This document shows positions 2,137 through 21,490 of a stretch of 64,000 nucleotides of DNA, piece after piece. Origin of the DNA: Eledone cirrhosa. Its lineage: Eukaryota. Position 1 is the first letter of the stretch. Every line of letters starts with the position of its first letter. Made by a program: the position numbers and the translations under genes. Where the stretch lies: NCBI GenBank assembly GCA_964016885.1, contig OZ024744.1, positions 29,946,001-30,010,000 on the forward strand, given 5' to 3'. Under the pieces are notes generated by a model that saw nothing but the letters and a program-made list of their open reading frames with translations, made no database searches and was not told the origin of the DNA.

Positions 2137-3704
2137 CTAACAGTGCTGCGATCGAATGTGGCTTTTTAGCCCAGCCAATGATCTAAAATGTCTTGCACAG
2201 AGTCGGCAACCAAAACATTCACTGGGAATAGTCGGCTGTGGTTGGAGTTCGTGTACTTTTGCATGTCGTTTGAGCCCTCCTGCTGATTTACATTCTCTAC
2301 CACATGTTTGGCAAGCATGATGAGTAGCATCTCCAACAGCAGCCTGGTAGTCAACCACTGGTCTTACTTTATGACTGCGAAGATGACTTTCGAGTCCAGC
2401 TTTGCTTAGGCAGAGTCTCGCACATACGCTGCATGTCAGCACCATAGGAGGACCCTCGCCGTCTGGAAGTGCAACAGCAATGCCCTTCCTCACATCCCGC
2501 TTTACTTTCTCGTGTGCGATTCGAGATGCCTCAAAGGCAACTTTTCCCTCATATACAGTCTTTCTCCATTTATTACGATCAGCAGCAATATTTTCCCATG
2601 TATCAGCAGAGATGTTAGCGTCTTTCAGAGAGGCTTTCAAGGAATCCTTATACCTCTTTTTTGGTTTATGTGGCGGTCGTTTTCCTTTAACCAACTCTCC
2701 ATAGAAGAGTTGTTTTGGTATTCTAGAATCCTTCATCCTGGCAAGGTGACCACTCCAACGGATTCGTTGCTTAAGCACAAGAGCTTCTATACTGTCACAC
2801 ATAGAGCTTTCCAAAATCTCGACATCACTGATGTGGTCCCTCCAGTGAACGCCGTGGATCCATCTGAGACACATCTGATGGAAACGCTCCAATTGCTTAA
2901 GGTGGTGTCGATATGTGACCCAGGTCTCGCAGGCATAAAGAAGACAAGAGAGTACACATGCCCTGTACACCTTTACCTTTGTCCTCCTGCATATGTCTCG
3001 CCGACCCCAGAGTCGCCTTTCTAGCTTTCCGAAAGCATCACTTGCTTTCCTAATCCTAAGTGAGATTTCACTGTCAAGGTTGCTGTATCGATTGACAGGG
3101 CTTCCCAGGTAGACAAACTGATCAATCACTCCAAGTCGTTTGCCATACACATAGATGTTTGGTTCAGTCTACTGCTTACCAGGGGCAGGTTGGTACATGA
3201 CGACGGTTTTCTTGAGACTGACAGTCAATCCTAGGGCAGTGCAAGCGTCAGAATATGCATTCAAAATGTGCTGCATATCACTCTCTGTGTGCGCTACAAG
3301 ATCGGCTCCGACATGTTACCTCCGACATTAACCCAAGCCTTCATGTCGTCATGGAAAGACCTAACTAAAGAAAGGAACTTATCAGGGCAACCAAGTTTCT
3401 GGAGAACATTCCATAATGCATCTCTGTTGACAGTATCGAAAGCCTTTGTCAGATCGACAAAAACCTGATACAGATCCAAGCCTTGTTTAATGCACTTCTC
3501 CTGGAGCTGTCTGGCTGAGAAGATCATATCAGTAGTGCCGCGTCCAGCACGAAAACCAGATTGACTTTCAGGAAGAACACAATCTGCAATGTGTGTCAGC
3601 AGACGGTCCAGAAGCACCCTACATAAAACTTTCCCTACGACAGAAAGCAATGATATACCTCTGTAGTTCCCACAATCATTCCTCTTACCCTTTCCCTTGT
3701 ACAA
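2137..3704 (-). mobile_element. RTE-clade LINE, 5'-truncated and internally deleted (partial RT, three C-terminal C2H2 fingers)
   Basis: YKGKG..DCGNYRGISLLS, PESQSGFRAGRGTTDMIF, FVDLTKAFDTVNR, FVYLGS, YACETW, RWSGHLARM..RIPKQLFYGEL. The QG and YADD segment is missing at ~3305, and there is a stop near 3170. Confidence 0.93.
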
Positions 3705-3821
3705 TATATAACAGTTTTACAAATAAGCTTTGACGTACCCTATCCGGATGACTTCCAAAAACAATGGTTGCATTTTAATAGGGTACGTCAAAGCTTATTT
3801 GTAAAACTGTTATATATTGTA
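3700..3821. repeat. Perfect 44-bp inverted repeat with 34-bp spacer
   Basis: 3700-3743 is the exact reverse complement of 3778-3821. Confidence 0.95.
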
Positions 3822-3884
3822 TTTTGTCTGATGAAGGCATACCATAATTTAATTTGGTATCCCTGAAATATGTATAATGAAATA
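3820..3884 (+). ncRNA. Putative type-I hammerhead ribozyme
   Basis: TATTTTGT-CTGATGA-AGGcATACCA(loop)TGGTATcCCT-GAAA-TATGTA-TA-ATGAAATA. Canonical core, 9-bp stem II with one mismatch, 8-bp stem I (2 G-U), near-palindromic stem III. Confidence 0.65.
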
Positions 3885-4179
3885 AATATGGTTTTATAAA
3901 TATAGTTTCCATTTATTAATATCGTATATCTACTCCAAATACTTGTCGAGTGCTTTATATCAGTTATAAAAATATTTACTTGTTGTATCCCAACAATTTT
4001 AAATAGAACTTTTGCATATATATATATATATATATATTTCAATTAAGCTCATATTTATCTCTGCTGTTCATGGTAATTCTTAAATGTTTACTACTACCTG
4101 AAATCTTATTTTTATAACCAGATTTGGCAAAGACTTCATTTTGGTTTAACATTTCCTCATTAGCTGACTTCCCATGATA

Positions 4180-4670
4180 ATTGAAACCAGCAGGCCTCGA
4201 CCACGGGGACGGCAAGAGTCCCGATGGAATCACCCTTTTCCATTCGAAGGAGGTAGATCCCTCATCTGGGACGCCACATGTTGTGATATGTTCTCCGCAT
4301 CCAACTTAGTCACTTCGGGCACAAACCCCGGTACCGCGGCCCGCCATGCAGAGGAAAGGAAGATAAGCAAATACCTGGGATTGTCCAGCTGCTTCCTCTT
4401 CGCACCAGTCACCGTCGTGACTTCAGATGTACTTGGGCCCTGTATTGTCGAGCACTTCCGCAAGATCGGAACGTCGGTGGCCCGTCTGAGGAAGGAGCCC
4501 CGCGAGGTTTGGTGGCTGTTGCAGCGGATGTCACTGGCCATTATCCGTGGGATAGCTTTTGCGGTCATGTCCCCAGGGCGCAGCCTTATTACTGCCGCAC
4601 CCTAGGCCCGGAGCCAAAACATCCTGTGCTTCTCGCTCCTCATTCTTTTGTGACACTGGTCCACTGGTAT
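4180..4670 (+). mobile_element. CRE-clade-like non-LTR retrotransposon 3' fragment (RLE domain)
   Basis: LKPAGLDHGDGKSPDGITL, a frameshift, then PFEGGRSLIWDATCCD..AARHAEERKISKY..FAPV..QRMSLAIIRG; typical CRE RLE C-terminus. Confidence 0.8.
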
Positions 4671-4673
4671 GTA

Positions 4674-5095
4674 CTCTCGGATCTCGAAAAATCACCCCCT
4701 TCCCGCATATTAATTTTTTGTTTTGTTTTTTCCATCACCACCATCCCGCTCTTATACCTCTCCCCCTCTTATTAAATGTTGTTAATCTATTTCCGGCAAC
4801 ATTTTTATTTTAAGTGGTAACATTTCTGCGACAATTAATTTTCTTTATACATTAACAAACATTATACATGATAAAAAAAAGTACATTACCAGGAATTTCA
4901 TATAAAATAAATAGGATGGTTGGGGTCTCAATATGTAAACTAAACGACTAATTCTGTTTTTTTTAAAATCAAGTGAAACAATCTAGAAAAATTAACGAAC
5001 GCACCCCCTCCCCGCTTATTCCTCACCCCACTCCCACGTTTATTCCAAGTGCACAGCTTATTCAACCACCGCCCCTATTATTTGAGACCCGAGAG
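4674..5095. mobile_element. MITE (Tc1/mariner/pogo-type) with TA target duplication
   Basis: TA|CTCTCGGATCTCGAA at the left end and TTTGAGACCCGAGAG|TA at the right end; imperfect TIRs, no coding capacity. Confidence 0.7.
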
Positions 5096-5174
5096 TAGTT
5101 AGAAAGTCTATGTACATAGTAAACATATTCACCCGGTCTATATAACCAGGTTTCTAATTCAAAAGTAACATCTT

Positions 5175-5293
5175 CTATATACTCTAATGCATAGTATATA
5201 GTTCTACTACTCTATACTATAATACATAGTATATAGTTCTACTGCTATATACTATAATACATAGTATATAGTTCTACTGCTATATACTATAAT
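5175..5293. repeat. 35-bp minisatellite, ~3.4 copies, each with an 11-bp hairpin
   Basis: Unit CTATATACTAT-AATAC-ATAGTATATAG-TTCTACTG. Confidence 0.9.
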
Positions 5294-5471
5294 TGTTTCT
5301 ACTTTAGGCTCAAGGCCAGCAAATACCCAGTGCATTACTGGTACTTTATTTTATCGATCCCCGTAAGGATGAAAGGCAAAGTTAACCTCGGCGGGATTTG
5401 AACTCAGACCATAAAGGGGCGTAACTCTATACTGCAAAGCATGGCGTCTTACCCTCTACTGGTACCGCCAA
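5291..5471 (-). mobile_element. tRNA-derived SINE
   Basis: Reverse complement of the copies at 16110 and 17115; B-box-like GAGTTCAAATCCC and core CTTTGCCTTTCATCCTTACGGGG.TCGATAAAATAAAGTACCAG. Confidence 0.88.
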
Positions 5472-5835
5472 ATATTCCATATTAATGAAATTCTTCCATT
5501 TACCATATTCTTTATATATCATTTGTTGAAACACGTGTAAGACTAATACAAATGTTTTAAATTCCTTCAAAATTCCTCTATCTTCTTGAAATGCTCTCTA
5601 CACTTACACTCATAAAATATCCAGTATTTATTTATCCAAAGTTTTAATTCCTGATTCCATATGGCTTATAACTTGGATGAGCAGATTCCTTAAATTTACT
5701 GACTGTAGGAACACAACTTGAAATTTATTTAACATAACTTTACCAACTTCAATTTTCCAAAATGTACTCTTGTTGTTATAACGTTGCGCCTCTCCATCTT
5801 TCATTGACCAACTATTTATTTACCAGTATGATAGC

Positions 5836-6028
5836 CTCTCTCTCTCTCACACACACTCACATACACAAACATACTCTCTCTTCCTCCTTTACTCACCCTC
5901 CTCTCTCTCTGCTTATCTCTCTCTCACTCTATTTCACATTCTCTCTCCCTCCCTCTCTCTCCTTCTTTCTATCTCTCTCTCACTCTCTTTCTCACCCTAA
6001 ACGCACATATATAAACACGCACACATGC
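5836..6028. repeat. Degenerate (CT)n/(CA)n low-complexity tract
   Basis: Direct reading. Confidence 0.8.
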
Positions 6029-6315
6029 ACAGGACCTCTTATCTTTTTTGACGAAAGTCTATTTATACCCCCCCCCCTCCCGGCGTTATTATTTGCACAA
6101 TATGTCTGCACTGTATCCTGTCGTGTTTTCAGTCGTAAGACTTTTATTGTAATTTGTTTGCGATTTGTAGTCATAGTCGAAAGCCACTCACTGTGTTGTT
6201 GTGTTATCTCATATGCAACCTTCCATTGGCCAGTTCAAGCTGCCGTGCAATGACACCCTTGTGCTCGAAATTGCATTCCCCAGGTGCTAGCGCAGAAGGA
6301 AGCAGATGTTTTTGT

Positions 6316-7400
6316 CACCATCATTTTAACGTCTGTTTTCCCTTCTAGCAAGGGTTGGACGGGTCTATATAGACCTTGTCAGTACTGAAGCGGTGGCTCC
6401 TAATCTAAACAAACCAGAGATCTGTCGTTTCGCTTATCTACGGTATCACGTTCTAACCTGTACTCAGCGGAGATTATCGTGTATGTACTAAGTGCGTTAT
6501 TGTGTGGATCCCCAACACTAGGGAGGCTGTCATGTCCTTGACTGAAAGGTCCTCGCGACCCTTTGTTTGGTTAAGCTTTTGCGGCTGGATGTCCTATCAC
6601 TAACCACTTCACAATGTGACAGGAGCTAGGAATGTGTGTGTGTGTGGGGGGGATAGGGTGTATGTGGTGAAGTAGCGTAGTGGTATTGAGGATAGCAGTT
6701 AGTGGAAGGAAGATGGTCAGGCCACATTGAATGCTTCAGGTAGGGTCTTCTTCGGCACATAGCGTAAACCCTCATAGTCTTTAGTCACTTCTGTTGTGAG
6801 GTTTAGTTGTTTTAATGTCAGTCTTCACAACCCCATCCTATGTCTTTCTGGGTCTACTTCTTTCACGGGACCCAGTAAATGGGATTTCTCTACATTTATC
6901 TTCCATACCCATATCAACGTAGTTTTCTCTCATACACACTACAAACAATTCCTCTTATGCCAAGTTTTTATCTCAGTTTGCTTATGCTATGTCACTCATG
7001 TACATTAACATTACACATCCGTCGGAGTATACTCGACTCATTTCTTTCTAGCCTCCACAAGTCTTTTGCTGTCAAGGTCCATGTTTCATTGTTATGTAAC
7101 ATTGCAGTTCGTACACTGTCATCATACAGTCTACCCTTCACTCTGAGAGAAAAGCATTTTGTTGTTAGCAGTGGTGATATATCTCTAAACTTCTTCCAGC
7201 CTATTCTTATCCTAGCTATCACACTCCCGGCACACCCTTCCCCAGTGCCAATTTGATATTCTAGGTAGCAAAAGCTGTCACCAACTTCTATGGAGTTCCC
7301 CTTAGAGAATCTGTGCTCTTTGTGCTCAATTCTTCCGTGCATCTGCCGCATGTAAAGTCTATCTTTTCCGTTAGTCTACCTACAATCCCACTACAAGAGG
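6316..7400 (-). mobile_element. Decayed RTE-clade LINE 3' portion with 3' UTR
   Basis: DSFCYL...RIRIGWKKFRDISPLL..LRVKGRLY..VRTAMLH..ETW..LERNESSILRRMC. The UTR boundary near 6316 is approximate. Confidence 0.75.
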
Positions 7401-11849: not shown

Positions 11850-12999
11850 AGATATCCAAATTCAGAGAACTCTCTGAGCAAACTGAGGATGTTCAAACGG
11901 AGTGGAAACTGCTCGTGTCGGCAGTTTCTGCTTCACCTGTTAAATGTTGTGGGCGAAAGCGATTTGATGCGGCGCCGGGTAGCAGAAGGACTCTTTGGTT
12001 CAATCAAGAGGTCAAAAATGCCATCCGAGCAAAGAAGGAGCCTTTCAAAATTTGGCTTGGAAATAAGTCCTTCTTCTTGCACTTGCGGTACAAGCAGGCA
12101 CGAAAAATGGCAGCAGAGACAGTAAAAGCGTCCAAAGTTCAGACATTGGCGGACTTTGGGATTAAGCTGGAATCCGACTTCAGATCAGCAAATAAAGTGT
12201 TCTGGCAGACCATTCGTTGACTTCGTAATAAGAAGTCTACACTCCACACCTGCTAACAAGAACGCGGCTGGGCTTCTCTCTTCAGAGAGGTTCGTCATCA
12301 CGAGGTGGAGAGAATACTTTGCTGATCTCCTAAACCCGATCATGCCATTTGATATACATAAGGTACATCTATGTAATTGCAGAGGTCACTAGGACATTTA
12401 AAGAGATGAAATGTAGCTAGACCACTGGGAAGGAAGAAATTCAGTTCGAGATGTTAAAAGCCATAAATAGAGAAATTATTCTCTGGAAGACTCGTGTGTG
12501 CCGTGTCGCCTGGATTTCTGGATAGACACCTAAGCAATGGCAATCGGGAGTGATAATCCCAATTTTCAAAAACGGATAGAGTGCGTACCTCGGAGAGCAG
12601 AGAGTCACTCCAGGTAGAACCGCTACTTCTCCGAATTGAGAGATCACAGCTCTGATACTATGGCCATGTGATTAGAATGTCTCAGGAAAGAATCGCTGGA
12701 CAGATTTTACGGACAAAACCAATATGTAGGAGACCCAGGCTAAACCACGAGCAAGATTGTTGGATAACATCAATGAGTTTGGCTGGTCACGTTTGGGTAT
12801 CCCGCCGGATTAGTTGGAGACAGTTTTGACAAGATCTGCTGAAAGGAGTGTTTGAGGGCTCTGTCCCCTCACCCTCTCAAGAAGAAGAAGAAGAAGAAGA
12901 AGAAGAAGAAGAAGAAGAAGAAGAAGAAGAAGAAGAAGAAGAAGAAGAAGAAGAAGAAGAAGAAGAAGAAGAAGAAGAAGAAGAAGAAGAAGAAGAAGA
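11850..12999 (+). mobile_element. Decayed, internally deleted RTE (Expander/Rex3-like) LINE with (GAA)n tail
   Basis: RTLWFNQEVKNAIRAKK..RYKQARK..DFRSANKVFWQTIR; RWREYFADLLNP; QWQSGVIIPIFK; then a jump to RIERSQL*YYGHVIRM. (GAA)n at ~12879-12999. Confidence 0.85.
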
Positions 13000-13244
13000 G
13001 TTTTTGCGTAGCTTTACAGTAGCAAAAAACACACCAAAGTTGCTCCAATAAAAAAGGGAAAACGTGTAAGGCGACCAAATAAACGCATCTAATCTCCTTG
13101 TTGCATCCCGTTGTGCAATGTAATTTCGTACATAAACATATGGTTCCATAATACTGAGCTCAGATTGCACGACCACGCGCACTACAAAACAAAAGTTAAA
13201 ATGGAGTACAAGCTTAAGTCTAGAAAGAACAGGAGACACAAAGT

Positions 13245-13445
13245 AGCCATTGAGGAGGTCTCAAAATGTGTGACGGAAGAACTTTAACTAGCGAATGAAA
13301 ATAACGAATAATAAAGATAAAGGGAAAAATCATATGGTGCATGTGTTTCTTTTTATTGGTAATACTGGCAAAATGGCCACCTAGAAATATAACCATATCG
13401 GTTTCAAGACTTGACTTCACATCAAGAATATTGCTGAACAAATAC
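13245..13445 (+). mobile_element. Family A diverged copy (hammerhead core decayed)
   Basis: TTGAGGAGGTCTCAAAATGTGTGACGGAAGAACTTTAAC and GGTGCATGTGTTTCTT..TATAACCATATCGGTTTCAA align with 611-810 and 15011-15250. Confidence 0.7.
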
Positions 13446-13909
13446 ATAACAAATACATAATAAAAAAAATAAAAAAAATATATATATATAGAAACGATCG
13501 TAAAATGATGAATTTTTTAATATAAGGAACTGTTTCTTTGTTTTTATTCATTATTTTTATTAATTTATCTTGACTCTGTTTTCCTGTATTTTTCATCGGA
13601 AAAAAAAAAAAAGTTTTTGAATACATCTTCTCTTTTCATGATATTCGGATTATATTGAGTTCTTGCAAGGTTCTGCGGGTGGACTACACTTACAAAGATC
13701 ATTGATTTGGGGATCTGAATCTTCATGTAGAATATTCAGTTGTGGCACTCTATGATAGAAGGTAATCATCCTAATATGAACACCTTTAGTACATCTTGAT
13801 AGACTACACTGTAATTTATAGATAAGATACTTAAATTTAGAAACTGTTTATAACCTTATATGATAGGGACTCATTTGAGACACCATTTAATGTACATTAG
13901 GATAATAAA

Positions 13910-14865
13910 TTTAGTTATAGAAATCAGCTAGTTACCTCCCCTTACGCATAACTCCTCTTAATCACACACACACTTCCGGAAAATAATACGATGTCAATTC
14001 TCGCAACAAAAACAACCTGCTCTATAGAATTGAATTAGAGATCAACAAGCTGTGGTGTTCTAACATGGTTCATCAAGCATCCAATGTTGAATCATCGTGG
14101 ATTGTGTGAGGGACATATAGTCTATAAATTGCGTTTTCTGGATTGTGAAAATGGTGGTGTATGCGTGGACCGTGGCGTTGTTTTGCTTCTCATTTTTAAT
14201 ATTTTTGATATTTCTCTACACACAGGCTTCTATATCATACATATATAAAAAATACTTTACCAATACAACCCCCATAATACTCTTGATTGCCCGCTTAAAC
14301 TGCTTGTATTACATAAAACACCCTGCCACACTTTAATCTTATATAAATAAGACACACGTGCATGCCCCACGTGTAACTATTGCATACACTAACTACTTCA
14401 AACTATCCTCTTGCTTTATCTTCGTAAACTGCCAATATTGTATTTTAACTTTAATTTTGTCCTTTAATATGACTTTAATCTTTGTATGTAAATTGCCATG
14501 CTATATTATTATAATGGATGTCAACACACTGTGCATCGATATATACATATGTTTCTATATGTCTCTTGTGTTGGAAAGGAGGTCAAGTATGTAAAAAATC
14601 ATTGAAAAATTGCTCCGAAGACTCCAAACCTCGGTTTGGAAGAAACAATTGTAAGCGAATAAATGGTTTAAACAGAACTTTGATTCATGTAATTTCTATA
14701 TAACTGCTCTGTAAAACAACTGATGTTGTTACATTGAGCTATTTATTTTACTGGTAATAAGGTAGTAATAAATTACTGTCTTTCACTGTTTAGGGTTTAA
14801 AATAAAATATATATAACTATAAAAGGTTTTAGTATATACATAACCATAAATAGTATCCTTAATAC

Positions 14866-14868
<3 letters not shown>
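13910..14868 (+). mobile_element. ~960-bp non-coding element, family B copy 1 (hammerhead-bearing)
   Basis: Near-identical direct copy at 18330-19283 (offset 4420); ends in a microsatellite. Confidence 0.9.
14610..14658 (+). ncRNA. Putative variant hammerhead ribozyme (CCGAAGA core)
   Basis: TTGCT-CCGAAGA-cTCCAAACC(tc)GGTTTGGAa-GAAA-CAATTG-TA-AGCGA. 5-bp stem I, ~7-8-bp stem II with a C.A closing mismatch, palindromic ACAATTGT stem III, GUA triplet. Confidence 0.6.
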
Positions 14869-14951
<83 letters not shown>

Positions 14952-14977
14952 CGTGTGTGTATATATATATATATATT

Positions 14978-15010
<33 letters not shown>
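14866..15010. repeat. (CA)n(TA)n compound microsatellite
   Basis: Direct reading. Confidence 0.95.
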
Positions 15011-15012
<2 letters not shown>

Positions 15013-15250
15013 CGTTTCTGAATTTGTTTAGCAAGATTCTTTATCTGAAAACCTGTGTTGAAACCGATATTGTTATACTTTGGGAGGGTCATGTTGCCAA
15101 TAAGAAACACACGCACCAGTTGCTTTCACTTCAATTTATTATACATTTCCGGCTGGTTGGTTGGTTACACAACCGGATGGTTGTACATATATTGTCAAAG
15201 TTCTTTTGTCACGCATTCTGTGACCTCTTCAGTGACTGGGGATTCTTTAC
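15011..15250 (-). mobile_element. Family A copy (hammerhead at 15194-15236 with GAAA changed to AAAA)
   Basis: Reverse complement of 601-810 plus an extra ~55-bp 3' extension. Confidence 0.85.
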
Positions 15251-15819
15251 TTTGTTTTGTGCCTCTCCTTTGTTCTGTCCTACACCATCTTGTTTTTGTG
15301 TGCTTAGTTTGCGCATGTGTTACATCCGGGTGTCTGTGTGTGTTTTTATTTGTTTATTTATTTGTTTATTTATTTGTTTATCTACATGTTACTAGTTAGT
15401 TGTTTGTTCTATGTGTGTGTGTTTTCATTTTGTCCTTAATTGTAAGTTGTGATGTTGCTATTCCATTCATGTTTTCTATTTAATTTTGGTTGGAGTTCAT
15501 TTATGTTTATTGCCTTCTAAAGAAGGGCCCTGGATAAACTTTAGAAGTGCCCTAGATAAACTTAAACCTAATATACGAAAAGGAGTGTCAATAATTTTAG
15601 ATAAAGAAAGATAGATCAACCAAGCAGTCCAACAGTTGACACTAACGATGTTTGGGGGCTTTCTTTTACTTTGATATTTTTGATGAAGAATAATTTTAGA
15701 TATAGGTATAATTACATTTTGAAGGTGTCTTACATTTATTAACCTCAGGTAAACATAGTCTTGGTCAGGATGGAGAGTAATTTCAGAGGTAGTTATAATT
15801 ACATCTTGAGGACAAAACA

Positions 15820-15901
15820 CAGAGATGGGGGAGAGAAAGAGAGGGAGAGAGAGAGATAGATAGAGAGAGAGGAAGAGAGGGAGATAGATATATATATATA
15901 T

Positions 15902-15996
<95 letters not shown>
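15820..15996. repeat. (GA)n/(GATA)n microsatellite
   Basis: Direct reading. Confidence 0.95.
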
Positions 15997-15999
<3 letters not shown>

Positions 16000-16109
16000 G
16001 CGTTGATTGCCAAATGAATTAACTATGGAGATATAAAAGACACAGAAGCGAAAACCAACCAAACAGTGAGTGTGTTCTGTTATTATTTATGACAATATTA
16101 TTACAATCG

Positions 16110-16289
16110 GTGGATTGGCAGTATCGGTAGAGGGTCGGAAGCCATGCTTTCCAGCATAGTTACGTCCCTTTACGATTTGAGTTCAAATCCCGCCGAGGTT
16201 GACTTTGCCTTTCATCTTTACGGGGTCGATAAAATAAAGTACCAGTAATGCACTGGGTAATTGCTGGCCTTGTGCCTAAAGTAGAAACA
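16110..16289 (+). mobile_element. Full-length SINE with 11-bp TSD, inserted in a family A remnant
   Basis: TSD ATTATTACAAT at 16097-16107 and 16290-16300; A-box-like TGGCAGTATCGG and B-box-like GAGTTCAAATCC. Confidence 0.9.
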
Positions 16290-16344
16290 ATTATTACAAT
16301 ATGACCCTTCCCAAGTATAACAATATATATATATATATATATAT

Positions 16345-16820
16345 AAACACCAAATAATCAATATACTATTAGAATAACATATATTCCAACCGACAGAGCT
16401 TCATCCCAAGGATGTGAACTTACAAACGCAGAAATGAAAAAAGTTTTTAAGAGCATATTTTACAAAAAACTTATCCAAATCTACTTTTGGATTTATACTG
16501 CAACCATACTCAAAATCGGCATCATCAGAGTTTATTATCAACTTAGATATAGATCGATTATAGAGATTGTGACAACAACAATATATACAGAAAGAATTTC
16601 ACATAATGAGTCAAAGGAAGTCCTAAATTATTAAGGTATACCTCACTGGGAGACCAGGTTGCAGTGTAAAAACATAAGGAAATTTAGATAATAATTTTTG
16701 GGAAAAAAACTTTCTTAAAGAATTTTCAAAATTCATGATTTTGTAAGTTCACATCCTCAGGATGAAGCTCTACTGGCTGAAACATGTGTTACTTCAATAG
16801 TATATTGATTCTTTGGTGTT
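16345..16820. mobile_element. ~480-bp element bounded by ~80-bp imperfect inverted repeats (MITE-like or inverted Penelope terminal repeat)
   Basis: AAACACCAAATAATCAATATACTATT...AGGATGTGAACTTACAA (16345-16425) versus TTGTAAGTTCACATCCT...AATAGTATATTGATTCTTTGGTGTTT (16741-16821). Confidence 0.75.
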
Positions 16821-16923
16821 TCTTAATCTTTATATATCAGCTCTATGTGAACCCCATTGCATTGAGCTTTAAACCCTCTGATAAAGTGTATACCCAATAA
16901 TAGCAACACTGTTATTACAAATA

Positions 16924-16939
16924 ATATATATATATATAT

Positions 16940-17012
<73 letters not shown>
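16924..17012. repeat. (TA)n(GA)n microsatellite
   Basis: Direct reading. Confidence 0.95.
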
Positions 17013-17016
<4 letters not shown>

Positions 17017-17114
17017 GTGAAGTTGGAAATAGCATGGAAAATATATTTAAGGGTCTGTTTTTCTTTTTTGATTCGTCAAAGTGACATTATTGAAAAGATA
17101 ACATTATTGAAAAA

Positions 17115-17295
17115 GTGGATTGGCAGTATCGGTAGAGGGCCGGACGCCATGCTTTCCAGCATAGTTACGTCCCTTTACGATCTGAGTTCAAATCCCGCCG
17201 AGGTTGACTTTGCCTTTCATCCTTACGGGGTCGATAAAATAAAGTACCAGTAATGCACTGGGTAATTGCTGGCCTTGTGCCTAAAAGTAGAAACA
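17115..17295 (+). mobile_element. Full-length SINE with 12-bp TSD
   Basis: TSD ATTATTGAAAAA at 17103-17114 and 17296-17307; highly similar to the 16110 copy. Confidence 0.92.
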
Positions 17296-17340
17296 ATTAT
17301 TGAAAAAATTAGAGGGATAAAGTATATAAAGTAAATAAAG

Positions 17341-17386
17341 TATTACCGGTTTCGATGTATTGTTAAAATCCATCTTATCAAATGTT
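17341..17386 (-). ncRNA. Decayed hammerhead-like motif (Penelope-type)
   Basis: Minus strand: CAT-TTGATAA-GATG(loop)CATC-GAAA-CCGG-TA-AT. Palindromic ACCGGT stem III; core has two substitutions versus CTGATGA. Confidence 0.45.
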
Positions 17387-17554
17387 AAGTATTGAAATAA
17401 AAATTAAAAAGAATTAATAGGAGTTAAAAACTAATGATTTAAAATTAAAATCAAATGTTGGAGTAAGTTTTCTTCCATCTTTCTTGATCAAAATTTGGTG
17501 GTAAGAGAAGATACCAGTAGTTGTGTTTCTTCACAGCCTGTATATATAATTAAG

Positions 17555-17745
17555 TAATAAACAAATCAATACAATTATTCTATTAACCAAAGGTTTCACG
17601 AAGAAAGGCGACCTCAACAGAGGCGTCCGAAGTCGTTCATCAGAAAGGAAAGTAAACGACTTCGGACGCCTCTGTTGAGGTCGCCTGTCGCCTGTCTTCG
17701 TGAAACCTTTAGTAAATGGCCTAATTGTATTGTGTTGTTTATTAT
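17555..17745. repeat. Long inverted repeat (near-perfect ~49-bp core, diverged outer arms) overlapping a hammerhead-like motif
   Basis: AAAGGTTTCACGAAGA.AGGCGACCTCAACAGAGGCGTCCGAAGTCGTT versus AACGACTTCGGACGCCTCTGTTGAGGTCGCCT..TCTTCGTGAAACCTTT. Confidence 0.9.
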
Positions 17746-17829
17746 ATAATTAAATAGCTCTGTACTCTACATAGAGCACTCTTCCTTCCTTTACCTTTTC
17801 TACGGAAATACTTCATATATATATATATA

Positions 17830-18294
17830 CCTTCGTAAAGACCTGAAAACCCACCTCTTCATTGCTGTAGCGGTGTCTGTGCTGCTGTACGGGTCTGAGA
17901 CTTGGACACTGACCAAGAAACTCACTCAGATGGTGGATGGGTGCTACACGAGAATGCTGAGGATGGCTCTGAACATTAATCAGTATACACTGAGGATGAA
18001 GAGCTCAGAGCTGTATGTCAGTCTCCCAAAAGTCAGCGCGAAAGTGACACAGAGGAGACTGAGGTAAGTTGGACATGCTCACCGACATCCAGAGTTGGCA
18101 TTGCACTCAGTGCTCCTGTGGGAGTTGCTACATGGACACACTGCGAGAGGAAGACCAAGGTAACGTATGTTGATGCCCTAAGGACAGACACTGGTCTGTT
18201 GGAGACGCAGAACATGGCGGTGATGATGAAGGACAGAGACCGCTGGAGAGAACTCGTCCATGGATCTCTGGAATTTTACCTGCCCTAGAAAAAA

Positions 18295-18312
<18 letters not shown>
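17830..18312 (+). mobile_element. RTE-like LINE 3' fragment with poly(A) tail
   Basis: LRKDLKTHLFIAVAVSVLLYGSETWTLTK..DGCYTRMLRMALN..QRRLR..GHAHRHPE..MKDRDRWRELV; A-run at 18288-18312. Confidence 0.85.
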
Positions 18313-18328
<16 letters not shown>

Positions 18329-18329
18329 T

Positions 18330-19283
18330 TTTAGTTATAGAAATCAGCTAGTTACCCCCCCTTACGCATAACTCCCCTTGATCACACACACACTTCCGGA
18401 AAATAATACGATGTCAATTTTCGCAACAAAAACAACCTGCTCTATAGAATTGAATTAGAGATCAACAAGCTGTGGTGTTCTAACAAGGTTCATCAAGCAT
18501 CCAATGTTGAATCATCGTGGATTGTGTGAGGGACATATAGTCTATAAATTGCGTTTTCTGGATTGTGAAAATGGTGGTGTATGCGTGGACCGTGGCGTTG
18601 TTTTGCTTCTCATTTTTAATATTTTTGATATTTCTCTACACACAGGCTTCTATATCATACATATATAAAAAATACTTTACCAATACAACCCCCATAATAC
18701 TCTTGATTGCCCGCTTAAACTGCTTGTATTACATAAAACACCCTGCCACACTTTAATCTTATATAAATAAGACACACGTGCATGCCCCACGTGTAACTAT
18801 TGCATACACTAACTACTTCAAACTATCCTCTTGCTTTATCTTCGTAAACTGCCAATATTGTATTTTAACTTTAATTTTGTCCTTTAATATGACTTTAATC
18901 TTTGTATGTAAATTGCCATGCTATATTATTATAATGGATGTCAATACACTGTGCATCGATATATACATATGTTTCTATATGTCTCTTGTGTTGGAAAGGA
19001 GGTCAAGTATGTAAAAAATCATTGAAAAATTGCTCCGAAGACTCCAAACCTCGGTTTGGAAGAAACAATTGTAAGCGAATAAATGGTTTAAACAGAACTT
19101 TGATTCATGTAATTTCTATATAACTGCTCTGTAGAACAACTGATGTTGTTACATTGAGCTATTTATCTTACTGGTAATAAGGTAGTAATAAATTACTGTC
19201 TTTCACTGTTTAGGGTTTAAAATATATATAACTATAAAAGGTTTTAGTATATACATAAACATAAATAGTATCCTTAATACTAT
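18330..19283 (+). mobile_element. Family B copy 2 (hammerhead variant at 19030-19078)
   Basis: Near-identical to 13910-14868; flanked by (TA)n on both sides. Confidence 0.9.
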
Positions 19284-19305
19284 ATATATATATATATATA
19301 TATAT

Positions 19306-19860
19306 CCAGGGAGTGTAACGTGGTGTTACTGTAGGTTCACCTGGGTGAGCACTCGATGTTTAGTTCACGTCAGTATCGAGGTGTAGAGCCAGACAGAGTG
19401 TAATATAATAATACAAGGACAAATGGTTACTCCTTCATTACGTTCATTGGTTGGTGATGCACGTTTCGCCATTGATCAGCTCCAGGTTCGATCTGTATCG
19501 ATCTAGCCCGACTCAAAAGCTCGTCGGACCTCTGTTGTAGTAATGACAGAATCAGTATAAAAAGTCTAACGTTCATATGTTGGTCTGTTTAAGTTGTTTT
19601 GATTGGTGGATTAGTTTCGAGGAGTGTTTTCGCCTGTAATGTGGGTGGGAGTAGTGACGAGTTAGGGTGGGGAGCAAAAGTTGATGTGAGTAGCGGGGTG
19701 TGGCGTTTTGACTGTCCTTAGACATGTTTGCGTGTTGAGATGTTATGTGAGGTGTGGAGGAGGTGGTGGTGCGGTGTATGGTATGAGATGAAGATTGTGG
19801 TGTTTTACTGGTAGGGGTAGGATGTTGTAAGGCATCGTTAAGGGGTCATGCGCTATAAGG
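19306..19860 (-). mobile_element. Penelope-terminal-repeat-like remnant with decayed hammerhead (19453-19530)
   Basis: Minus strand: C-rich tract, CCAATCA, TTTATA, then GGT-CCGACGA-GC...GC-GAAA-CGTGCA-TC-ACC; ends in (TA)n. Confidence 0.5.
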
Positions 19861-19973
19861 AATTACTGAGCTGATAGGATAGTACACATGAAAGATGTAT
19901 ATACACAAAGAAGAAAATTATAAAAAAAAATTATGAAAAATATATATACAAAAGTATATACATATGGAATTAA

Positions 19974-20007
<34 letters not shown>

Positions 20008-20025
20008 ATATATCTATATATATTT

Positions 20026-20035
20026 TCTCGCGAGA
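20026..20035. promoter_or_regulatory. TCTCGCGAGA palindrome (CGCG/BANP-type promoter element) at the start of a CpG-richer unique stretch
   Basis: Exact motif match; function not demonstrable from sequence. Confidence 0.3.
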
Positions 20036-20872
20036 CAGTTCTTTCGTTGCTATGGACCCCGCGGCTGAATTAACGGTCGATATCTTCAATTTGCAAAGCC
20101 TTTTAAACTGTATGTTATTACTCTGAGGTTTTATACCTTTTCGAGTGCTTGGCTGCACTTCTGAATGCATTCGTCGGCTTAGCTGCGGCTCGAGCTTCGA
20201 ATATGCTGTACCTCCATTTGTATTACTATCTCCTAGACCTAATGACCCAATTTTATTGATTGGTTAATTATTTATGTTTGTTTAATAACGGTCTGGTTGA
20301 GTGCTTAATTCAGTTTGTGTACGGAACTTATTCCATTCCTCATAATTTGAATTTGACCGCCATAAACCGGGTGTTAGCTCCCTTTGGAGAAACATGTGTC
20401 CTCACAACCGGACTGGCGTCAGAACGGAAGCCTGTTGAGAAATTAAATCCACCGTTCGATCTTTCAGAACCTTAACTTGCATACACCGTAAGCGGATTTT
20501 GTGGATTTCGGATTTACAGAAACCTAGCTGAGATATTAAAAAATTTCGAAGTGATGGTCCAGGTTTGTTATATATAAGCATTTTCCCTTACATAGGACAT
20601 ATAGTCCCACAGCCAGCAAATATATTGCTTTCAGCCAGCTAGTGCAGGATCGAATGGGGCCGTAAACGTGACCTACACGTGAACTGGTCGTTAGTAGAAG
20701 CAGGAGTAGCATAGACATGTTGTCTGCCACACCACTAAAAATAGCAGCTAGGTAAACAACGGATTTTTTCTCTACACATGGGAGTATTTACATAAAATGA
20801 GATATTAATCTTATTTTATGCAGCAGCATCTTCATCATCATCGTCGTCATCATCGTTGTCGTCGTCGTCGGT

Positions 20873-21490
20873 CGGTGGAATTATAGAATCTGTAGAGCGA
20901 CAGATTAAATGTCTTGCGTTATTTAGTTAGTTATCTCCCTTCCGTCTAGAAATCATATCTCTTCTGCCCAACTTGACTCTGCATTTTCGTCCTTCTACGA
21001 TCGTTAAAATAAATACTTTTCTATTGCTGTGGTGAGGCAGGGATCTATTTAATTGGCTCCAAGATCCCGATAATATAAGGTTTTGTGTTTTTGTTAGAAA
21101 TATGTTATTTTAAGAAGGTAAAAAGGGCGGAGAATAGCAGAATCGGCAGAATACCGGAAAATGGATTATGGGCTTTACTTATCTCCCATGACGTCGTTAT
21201 TTCAAATCCAACTGGGAGTTTACTTTGTCTTCCATTCGTCTAAGGTTGAGACAGCGAATAAGCATGATTGGCGACATCTCTCTGTTCTCTGAGTTCAAAA
21301 CCTGCTGAGGAAATCCTTTCGAAGTTGATAAATTAAGTACCAGTCTAATACTGAGACCGATTCTTCCTCTATACCTTTTTTTTTATGACCACCCCTCTCC
21401 CCCTCTCTCCCTCTCTCTCTTTCTCTCTCTCTCTTTCTCTGAAATGAATATAACCACCAAAAATTGCTGGCCTTGTGCCAAAATTAGAAC
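20873..21490 (+). mobile_element. Cluster of old, diverged SINE copies
   Basis: GAGTTCAAAACCTGCTGAGG, GATAAATTAAGTACCAG, AAAATTGCTGGCCTTGTGCCAAAATTAGAA and degenerate core matches at ~20970 and ~21220. Confidence 0.6.

Follow-up and report, generated by a model that had tools for sequence, protein, structure and literature searches.

A hammerhead-like motif with cytosine at core position 4 in truncated Penelope-like elements of Eledone cirrhosa

A 64-kb stretch of the Eledone cirrhosa genome (contig OZ024744.1, positions 29,946,001 to 30,010,000; G000:C28:29946001-30010000 in a 3.0-Gb animal genome; hereafter, the window) holds two nearly identical direct repeats, copies A and B, each carrying a motif that resembles a minimal hammerhead ribozyme with cytosine in place of uridine at core position 4 (U4). 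The locus raises two questions: to what kind of element the repeats belong, and whether the altered core reflects decay of individual copies or a state shared by the whole family. An original prediction, made from the sequence alone, had proposed an undescribed, non-autonomous, retrozyme-like family with a ~960-bp non-coding unit, two copies of which might jointly release a ~4.4-kb RNA. Our analysis leads to another reading, to which we assign a probability of roughly 0.55: the repeats are 5′-truncated 3′ ends, devoid of an open reading frame (ORF), of a ~4.2-kb Penelope-like element (PLE) of the Hydra clade, and the motif is the hammerhead of its pseudo-long terminal repeat (pLTR), changed from U4 to C in essentially all copies and predicted to cleave weakly, only when two motifs pair. 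Overall, the element class is ordinary and had been misdelimited, and the ribozyme core is a modestly interesting variant that is directly testable.

The repeats and their parent element

The two copies lie in direct orientation at an offset of 4420 bp (13910-14869 and 18330-19284), as originally described. Over 13910-14869, they differ in 14 alignment columns (98.5% identity), made up of nine substitutions, of which seven are transitions, and a single 5-nt indel at 14798-14802, and both are followed by the reported microsatellites, (CA)n(TA)n after copy A and (TA)n after copy B. The supposed shared 5′ boundary did not survive comparison with other loci. Family homology in copy A begins at 13664/13668 against most loci compared, and from 13648 on the copy aligns at 87.6% identity with unit positions 3328-4569 of L076 (G000:C1:4409500-4418000), which served as the full-length reference arrangement. 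Because the homology of copy A goes on upstream, reaching 246 nt further 5′ than copy B in family sequence, 13910 marks nothing but the truncation point of copy B, which comes just after a (TA)n run; copy B is bounded by (TA)n on both sides (18312-18329 and 19285-19305).

Searching the same genome with the 960-bp stretch returned 4209 first-look candidates, and the 40 copies scored among them showed 86-100% identity to the query. All copies have the 3′ end ...CTTAATACTATA in common, and their 5′ ends vary. Other family copies reach stepwise further 5′ than copy A and into an ORF, so that the ~960-bp non-coding element could not be upheld as a unit. In 27 of 31 rows examined, the element end passes straight into TA-rich repeat, the exceptions being L008, L015 (CATA...), L020 and copy A, where (CA)n comes first. 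A second end lies inside the element: ten of 46 matches stop at query positions 788-793 with (TA)n directly after (for example, L026 and L027), and the inverted arms of L046 and L076 terminate at an internal CTATATA (element position ~791), not at the true 3′ end. Both family ends (~791 and 960) read CTATA and then (TA)n, which suggests that reverse transcription starts by microhomology at two sites, each serving one arm. The CTATATA inside copy A is likely the second of these sites and would prime on (TA)n targets.

True pLTR-ORF-pLTR units occur elsewhere in the genome, as in L076 (Table 1), whose motif-to-motif unit measures 4234 bp (2436 to 6670). In the genome-wide motif list, direct pairs ~4.17-4.23 kb apart recur and head-to-head (−,+) pairs are many. 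General PLE anatomy is described as combining truncation at the 5′ end with pLTRs formed by partial tandems and a neighboring inverted copy that is itself 5′-truncated (PMC8557442). This family shows all of these traits, its copies often carrying a pLTR and an inverted 5′ arm, and it targets (TA)n. The upstream pLTR of L076 matches the window at 14527-14868 (94%) and at 18947-19283 (95%), matches of the L076 unit DNA are confined to the two 3′ fragments, and tblastn with ORF pieces gave no match to a PLE ORF in the window. The copies are separated by 3.4 kb of unrelated DNA, composed of microsatellites, repeats resembling short interspersed nuclear elements (SINEs) and the tail of a long interspersed nuclear element (LINE). 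Since no PLE ORF lies between the copies, the locus itself is not a pLTR-ORF-pLTR unit. We infer that both copies inserted in or close to (TA)n, were dead on arrival and have no processing role at this locus; they probably derive from one young master copy.

Two subfamilies were compared, namely subfamily A, which includes the window copies and L076, and the more abundant subfamily B, represented by L077. Their ORF DNA is 85% identical and their pLTRs 74%. Across the last ~316 nt, L076 and L077 are 78% identical, and ~1.3 kb of their 3′ untranslated regions (UTRs) has no detectable homology save for a 72-nt island, indicating that most of the 3′ UTR was replaced in one subfamily lineage. A different PLE was observed at L047 (295-5250, minus strand), with a reverse transcriptase (RT) piece (Pfam RVT_1, E 2.7e-4), a GIY-YIG-like C-terminus and an inverted 5′-truncated partial copy (294-1429 versus 4109-5248). 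A copy of the family studied here lies ~1.2 kb beyond that element, with a piece of a third retroelement intervening.

The single ORF of the element, assembled from L076 and a 599-aa open piece in L047, encodes ~830 aa and contains the RT motifs FDI and YRDD. Its GIY-YIG match by Pfam (E 5.6e-4) reaches 20.6 bits, below the curated cut-off of 22.6, and Pfam searches of the large ORF pieces and six homologues gave nothing over threshold. The homologue search found 113 proteins, mostly of ~700 aa and at best 37% identical; when limited to longer proteins, it found none. One homologue adjoins protein-atlas clusters with HTH_animal, DUF8422, GIY-YIG and RVT_1, which we treat as a lead only. An AlphaFold model of the 37%-identical homologue P0002, based on 26 aligned sequences (predicted local distance difference test score 83), had telomerase RTs as its top matches in the PDB, with the RTs of retrons, group II introns and LINE-1 ranking next. 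PLEs of the Hydra clade are described as carrying a C-terminal endonuclease (EN+) and as distinguished by DKT instead of DKG, RWK, a CxCX5C linker, (TA)n targets, and CxxC and CxH flanking conserved E and N residues (PMC8557442). Counterparts in the ORF are HADKTNN, RVRWRTF (with RWR, not RWK), CNCRSNRTC and CNLCLLE...N...CQH; residues C659, C665, C671, C756, C759, E762, N775, C784 and H786 are invariant among the 26 aligned homologues. Judged by these signatures, the element is a Hydra-clade PLE with a predicted RT and a predicted C-terminal GIY-YIG domain.

The hammerhead-like motif and its cytosine 4

The motif proved to be as described, letter for letter in copy A and identical in copy B at +4420, and its layout is that of a putative Penelope-type minimal hammerhead whose helix III is palindromic. 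Its distance is ~85 nt from the start of the pLTR and 216 nt from the 3′ end of the element. On the 5′ core strand, six of seven positions agree with C3-U4-G5-A6-N7-G8-A9, position 4 being C. The 3′ core strand has the expected G14642, A14643 and A14644, an A15.1-U16.1 pair (A14645/T14652) and a non-G residue at position 17 (A14653). Three helices are predicted, with 5 bp in stem I, 7 bp in stem II beyond a C.A mismatch and helix III arising from the pairing of two motifs. In RNAcofold, the homodimer structure of minimum free energy is a double hammerhead with an 8-bp intermolecular helix III and stems I formed in trans, predicted at −32.2 kcal/mol versus −22.0 kcal/mol for two monomers.

We searched with a minimal-hammerhead descriptor that accepts U or C at position 4 and allows for a bulge on each side of stem II; helix III must be self-complementary and stem I must have 4 bp or more. 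Its only matches in the window were these two sites, and 100 block-shuffled windows gave none; on these grounds, and on reversed-pattern controls, which gave 0 matches, we rejected a chance origin of the motif. The AATAAA noted earlier downstream of the motif is present at 14659-14664 and is not kept in the sister subfamily B, which reads AATAAT or AAAAAT, and a poly(A) signal was accordingly rejected as part of the system. The C.A mismatch closing stem II is not a flaw of this motif in particular. At that point, four of six published Hydra-clade hammerheads have an extra nucleotide on both sides (PMC8557442, File S2); as these share the layout, the mismatch is a clade pattern and the real departure is the change from U4 to C.

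Exact motif counts over the whole genome gave 5290 copies with CCGA, 64 with CTGA and 80 with CCAA, and 0 for reversed-pattern controls. CCAA is the other, mirror product of CpG decay, in which G5 is destroyed, and the U4 revertants are thus no commoner than a neutral decay product. Among aligned copies, CCGA was found in 32/37 and CTGA in 1/37. In a tree of 41 pLTR pieces, used only for the non-monophyly of CTGA (23 of 38 inner branches are open and several rows are long), the CTGA copies were scattered over several sublineages and formed no single clade, with L072-L074 grouping. C4 is the family state in all amplifying lineages. The original prediction had reasoned that a CTGA consensus would point to decayed copies and a total of only two copies to local duplication; instead, CCGA is fixed in the family and the genome contains thousands of copies.

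Between subfamilies A and B, the motif is the block conserved best. It is identical at 43 of 49 positions, and its core, stem II and GAAAC together at 30 of 32; of all 30-column stretches of the pLTR, the most similar (29/30) falls on it. Between copies A and B, the motif block is invariant. The center of helix III reads AATT in subfamily A and AGCT in subfamily B, a double change that keeps the palindrome, and the self-complementarity of helix III is kept by compensatory change. A hand count of the first 100 of 5430 matches gave AATT 49 times, AGCT 32 times and AGTT 19 times, with 0 others. Genome-wide, AGTT, a G.U pair on the sense RNA, occurs 719 times and AACT (A.C) 14 times; this asymmetry fits pairing of sense-strand RNA, the figures being copy counts behind which independent events may be as few as one.

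Another PLE family of this genome (L033) contains a head-to-head pair of minimal hammerheads with a CUGAAGA core and an ACGCGU palindrome, at 5697-5762 (+) and ~5203 (−). Canonical-core PLE hammerheads coexist in the genome with the C4 family.

Table 1 Features of the two window copies, of the predicted fold of the motif and of the full-length reference L076 (positions in the window or, where stated, in L076)
Feature	Positions	Strand	Basis or remark
Copy A, 5′-truncated ORF-less PLE 3′ end (~last 1.2 kb)	13664..14869	+	Homology to family copies
pLTR-forming part of copy A	14527..14869	+	L076 pLTR match; copy B equivalent 18947-19284
Hammerhead-like motif, copy A	14610..14658	+	Sequence reading, descriptor match
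Stem I 5′ strand TTGCT	14610-14614	+	Copy A motif
Core C3-C4-G5-A6-A7-G8-A9 (CCGAAGA)	14615-14621	+	Copy A motif
Stem II: C.A, U-A, then 6 bp closing 4-nt loop CUCG	14622-14641	+	Copy A motif
G12-A13-A14 (GAA)	14642-14644	+	Copy A motif
Helix III palindrome ACAATTGT	14645-14652	+	Copy A motif
H17 = A14653, predicted cut after	14653	+	Copy A motif
Stem I 3′ strand AGCGA	14654-14658	+	Copy A motif
AATAAA after motif	14659-14664	+	Copy A
Internal CTATATA, alternative end for the family's short inverted arms	14694..14702	+	Ends of matches and inverted arms
(CA)n(TA)n microsatellite abutting copy A 3′ end (target or tail)	14870..15010	.	Read from sequence
(TA)n directly 5′ of copy B	18312..18329	.	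Poly(A) of unrelated LINE tail precedes
Copy B, more heavily 5′-truncated, last 955 nt of same PLE	18330..19284	+	98.5% identity to 13910-14869
Hammerhead-like motif, copy B	19030..19078	+	Identical to copy A motif; predicted cut after A19073
L076 inverted 5′-truncated arm	1528-2347 (L076)	−	Ends at the internal CTATATA
L076 upstream pLTR, 339 bp, direct repeat of 6580-6913	2346-2684 (L076)	+	Motif at 2436
L076 ORF	from ~2720 (L076)	+	Part of the 4234-bp unit
L076 3′ UTR, ~1.7 kb	ends 6914 (L076)	+	Motif at 6670

Possible roles of the motif

The element inserts into (TA)n, mostly leaving 5′-truncated ends; in the mechanism that we propose, the (TA)n target end would prime on UAUA in the RNA. 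Within a pLTR-ORF-3′ UTR transcript (unit 4234 nt) or between RNAs, the 8-nt palindromes could pair and stems I form in trans, whereupon each paired core would cut after A17, slowly owing to C4. The rate would be lowered by U4C, the expected loss being the contact of U4 with the A6-N7 phosphate (PMC3088659). Both copy ends (~791 and 960) are situated 3′ of the predicted cut, a familiar PLE puzzle that motivates the idea of a slowed core: rapid self-cleavage would part the template from the sites where it is primed, and a slowed U4C core could let full-length or tandem RNA last until copied. That C4 represents selected attenuation and not decay, with PLE hammerhead activity tuned instead of maximised, is a further step that we consider unlikely. 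If true, it would make this family a natural experiment on the purpose of PLE hammerheads, whose function is called unclear in PMC8557442.

Several observations weigh against a weakly cleaving Hydra-clade hammerhead. U4 is canonical in the six published Hydra-clade hammerheads, and U4C is reported to lower activity considerably (PMC8557442, PMC3088659). Canonical PLE minimal hammerheads themselves show poor or low cleavage in vitro, and the G10.1-C11.1 pair is called highly conserved among them (PMC4209133); this pair, which closes helix II, is absent here, replaced by C.A in the window and by A.G, C.C or C.U in subfamilies. The subfamily counts refer to copies, not to independent events, and the AGTT excess could come from a single master copy. 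A search with hammerhead models, proposed with the original prediction, yielded no Rfam match at E ≤ 10 in 12000-21000 (9 kb) or 14560-14720 (161 nt), nor at E ≤ 1 on L046 and L047. Since the canonical-core minimal hammerhead of L033, run as a control, reached only 16.5 bits with Rfam HH9 (E 0.1, gathering score 52), Rfam is a weak test for the minimal PLE class. For the protein, Pfam did not detect RVT_1 in the ORF pieces of the element or in six homologues, and a profile of 26 homologues gave chance-level matches only against PDB sequences; the RT assignment therefore rests on the motifs, the fold of the 37%-identical homologue and the likeness to the published clade.

Part of this evidence is shared with a competing explanation, possible in our view although clearly the less probable, that the motif descends from a PLE hammerhead and no longer cuts. 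Its fold or palindrome would then be kept for a different purpose, for instance to let RNAs dimerise, to be recognised by the RT or to mark the start of template use, and U4C would be a tolerated loss of catalysis. Both U4C and the missing G10.1-C11.1 pair are expected to harm catalysis, and the ends at ~791 and 960 would both be lost from a cut RNA. U4 revertants, as frequent as the mirror CpG-decay product (64 versus 80), have remained unamplified, and a restored canonical core therefore appears to bring no visible advantage; Naiad PLEs, moreover, are reported to thrive without canonical hammerheads (PMC8557442). Against a motif that no longer cuts stand the unpaired residues G5, A6, G8, A9, G12, A13 and A14, which are unchanged between subfamilies whose pLTRs are 74% identical. 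An unchanged core fits catalysis best, although a protein-binding site would give the same pattern, and a viroid hammerhead with U4C still works in vivo (PMC3088659). Weak, dimer-dependent cleavage remains our preferred reading. Cutting by C4 dimers would mean that retrotransposons, too, tolerate the core change known from one viroid; without such cutting, the ribozyme of a thriving PLE lineage would be dead yet conserved, which would point to a non-catalytic role.

The origin of the window pair was weighed as well. Local duplication or gene conversion of a single inserted copy would agree with the finding that A and B are mutually closest, at 98.5% identity versus at most 97.4% to any other scored copy. 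However, the homology between them runs exactly from the point where B was truncated to the 3′ end of the element; (TA)n flanks B on either side, whereas A has its additional 246 nt of family sequence upstream. As the copies have no flanking DNA in common, two insertions are the better reading, and duplication seems very improbable. Hardly credible is a non-coding, ~960-bp retrozyme-like family whose two copies jointly release a ~4.4-kb RNA. The architecture of the motif is of the kind found in animal retrozymes, themselves proposed PLE derivatives (bioRxiv 10.64898/2026.07.22.740005), but a 960-bp unit does not exist: the variable 5′ ends lead into the RT/GIY-YIG ORF, and the copies are 3′ ends of an autonomous ~4.2-kb PLE with RT and GIY-YIG, not an undescribed non-autonomous family. 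No short head-to-tail tandem monomers occur at the locus, and the interval between the copies is unrelated DNA without a PLE ORF, which leaves the 4.4-kb RNA unsupported here. Release of unit-length RNA is a published hypothesis for true pLTR-ORF-pLTR PLE units.

Further repeats surround the copies. Directly before the (TA)n of copy B lies the 5′-truncated tail of an unrelated LINE (17830-18311), which ends in ~24 A and has a stop-broken reading frame. Inverted arms at 13363-13449 and 15016-15102 (87 nt, 76% complementary) enclose copy A and its microsatellite, and the same flanking sequence also adjoins the PLE copy at L013; the arms look like a fold-back element, similar to a miniature inverted-repeat transposable element (MITE), with a central (TA)n that was hit by the PLE at two separate loci. 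A SINE-like repeat forms two 171-nt direct copies (16110-16280 and 17115-17285; 98% identical, 1005 bp apart), and ARAGORN found no transfer RNA in 15900-17500. The inverted arms at 16329-16448 and 16718-16837 (120 nt, 77% complementary, separated by 269 nt) are another fold-back or MITE-like unit, bordered by TA and GA microsatellites. At 17543-17756, a long near-perfect hairpin (core 17604-17688) sits within 70-nt inverted arms. The core scored 46 bits with the Rfam model mir-154, under the gathering score of 52, and is probably a fold-back repeat and not a microRNA gene; Rfam matches on this hairpin and on the TA/CA microsatellite, all from sub-threshold microRNA models, were set aside.

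Relation to known systems

Hammerheads in PLE pLTRs, Hydra-clade PLEs, including one from octopus, and U4C in one viroid were already known. In the literature searched, with the small PLE variants of Lunse et al. 2017 outside its scope, we found no earlier report of a C4 PLE hammerhead. New, as far as searched, is a PLE lineage in which C4 is fixed over thousands of copies and several sublineages and the remaining motif is constrained. For annotation, this means that thousands of homologues of PLE hammerheads in this genome escape both Rfam models and descriptors built on CUGANGA.

The closest parallels are the minimal type-I hammerheads of PLEs (Cervera and de la Pena 2014, PMC4209133). Like these, the present motif is located in the pLTR of an RT/GIY-YIG element, has a long helix II, a 5-bp helix I and an extra nucleotide after A9, and possesses as helix III only a short palindrome, so that two motifs must pair; in both cases, single motifs in truncated copies or head-to-head pairs prevail. 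It departs from them in its family-wide C4 for U4, in lacking G10.1-C11.1 and in its perfect 8-mer palindrome without a loop.

Among PLEs, the element most resembles the Hydra clade (Craig et al. 2021, PMC8557442), which includes Hydra-1_Obim from Octopus bimaculoides. Shared traits comprise DKT, an RWK-like motif, CxCX5C, CxxC/CxH, the C-terminal GIY-YIG, (TA)n targets and a hammerhead near the 3′ end with the same bulge layout and a helix III loop too small to close. The six Hydra-clade hammerheads of File S2 all have CUGA cores, and their helix III consists of 4 bp and a loop of 1-2 nt; in five of them, A9 is followed by an additional nucleotide, and four of these five have another in front of G12. 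Whereas the families published there are <3 kb with CUGA cores, the present family has CCGA and measures ~4.2 kb because of its ~1.7-kb 3′ UTR, and its copy number is in the thousands.

Animal non-LTR retrozymes (PMC7229834; Li et al. 2026 preprint) are similar in their type-I hammerheads, PLE ancestry and weak helix III. They differ in being short non-coding monomers in head-to-tail arrays, whereas here two single motifs lie 4420 bp apart on the ends of a coding element.

The same core substitution is known from a natural viroid hammerhead, in which U4C reportedly lowers in vitro activity and the viroid is still infectious (cited in Perreault et al. 2011, PMC3088659, their ref. 30), so that weaker cutting is sufficient there in vivo. 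The viroid sequence is a variant within a replicating RNA population, and its hammerhead is of type III and stabilised by loop contacts; in the family described here, by contrast, the motif is DNA encoded, belongs to a retrotransposon and has the change fixed.

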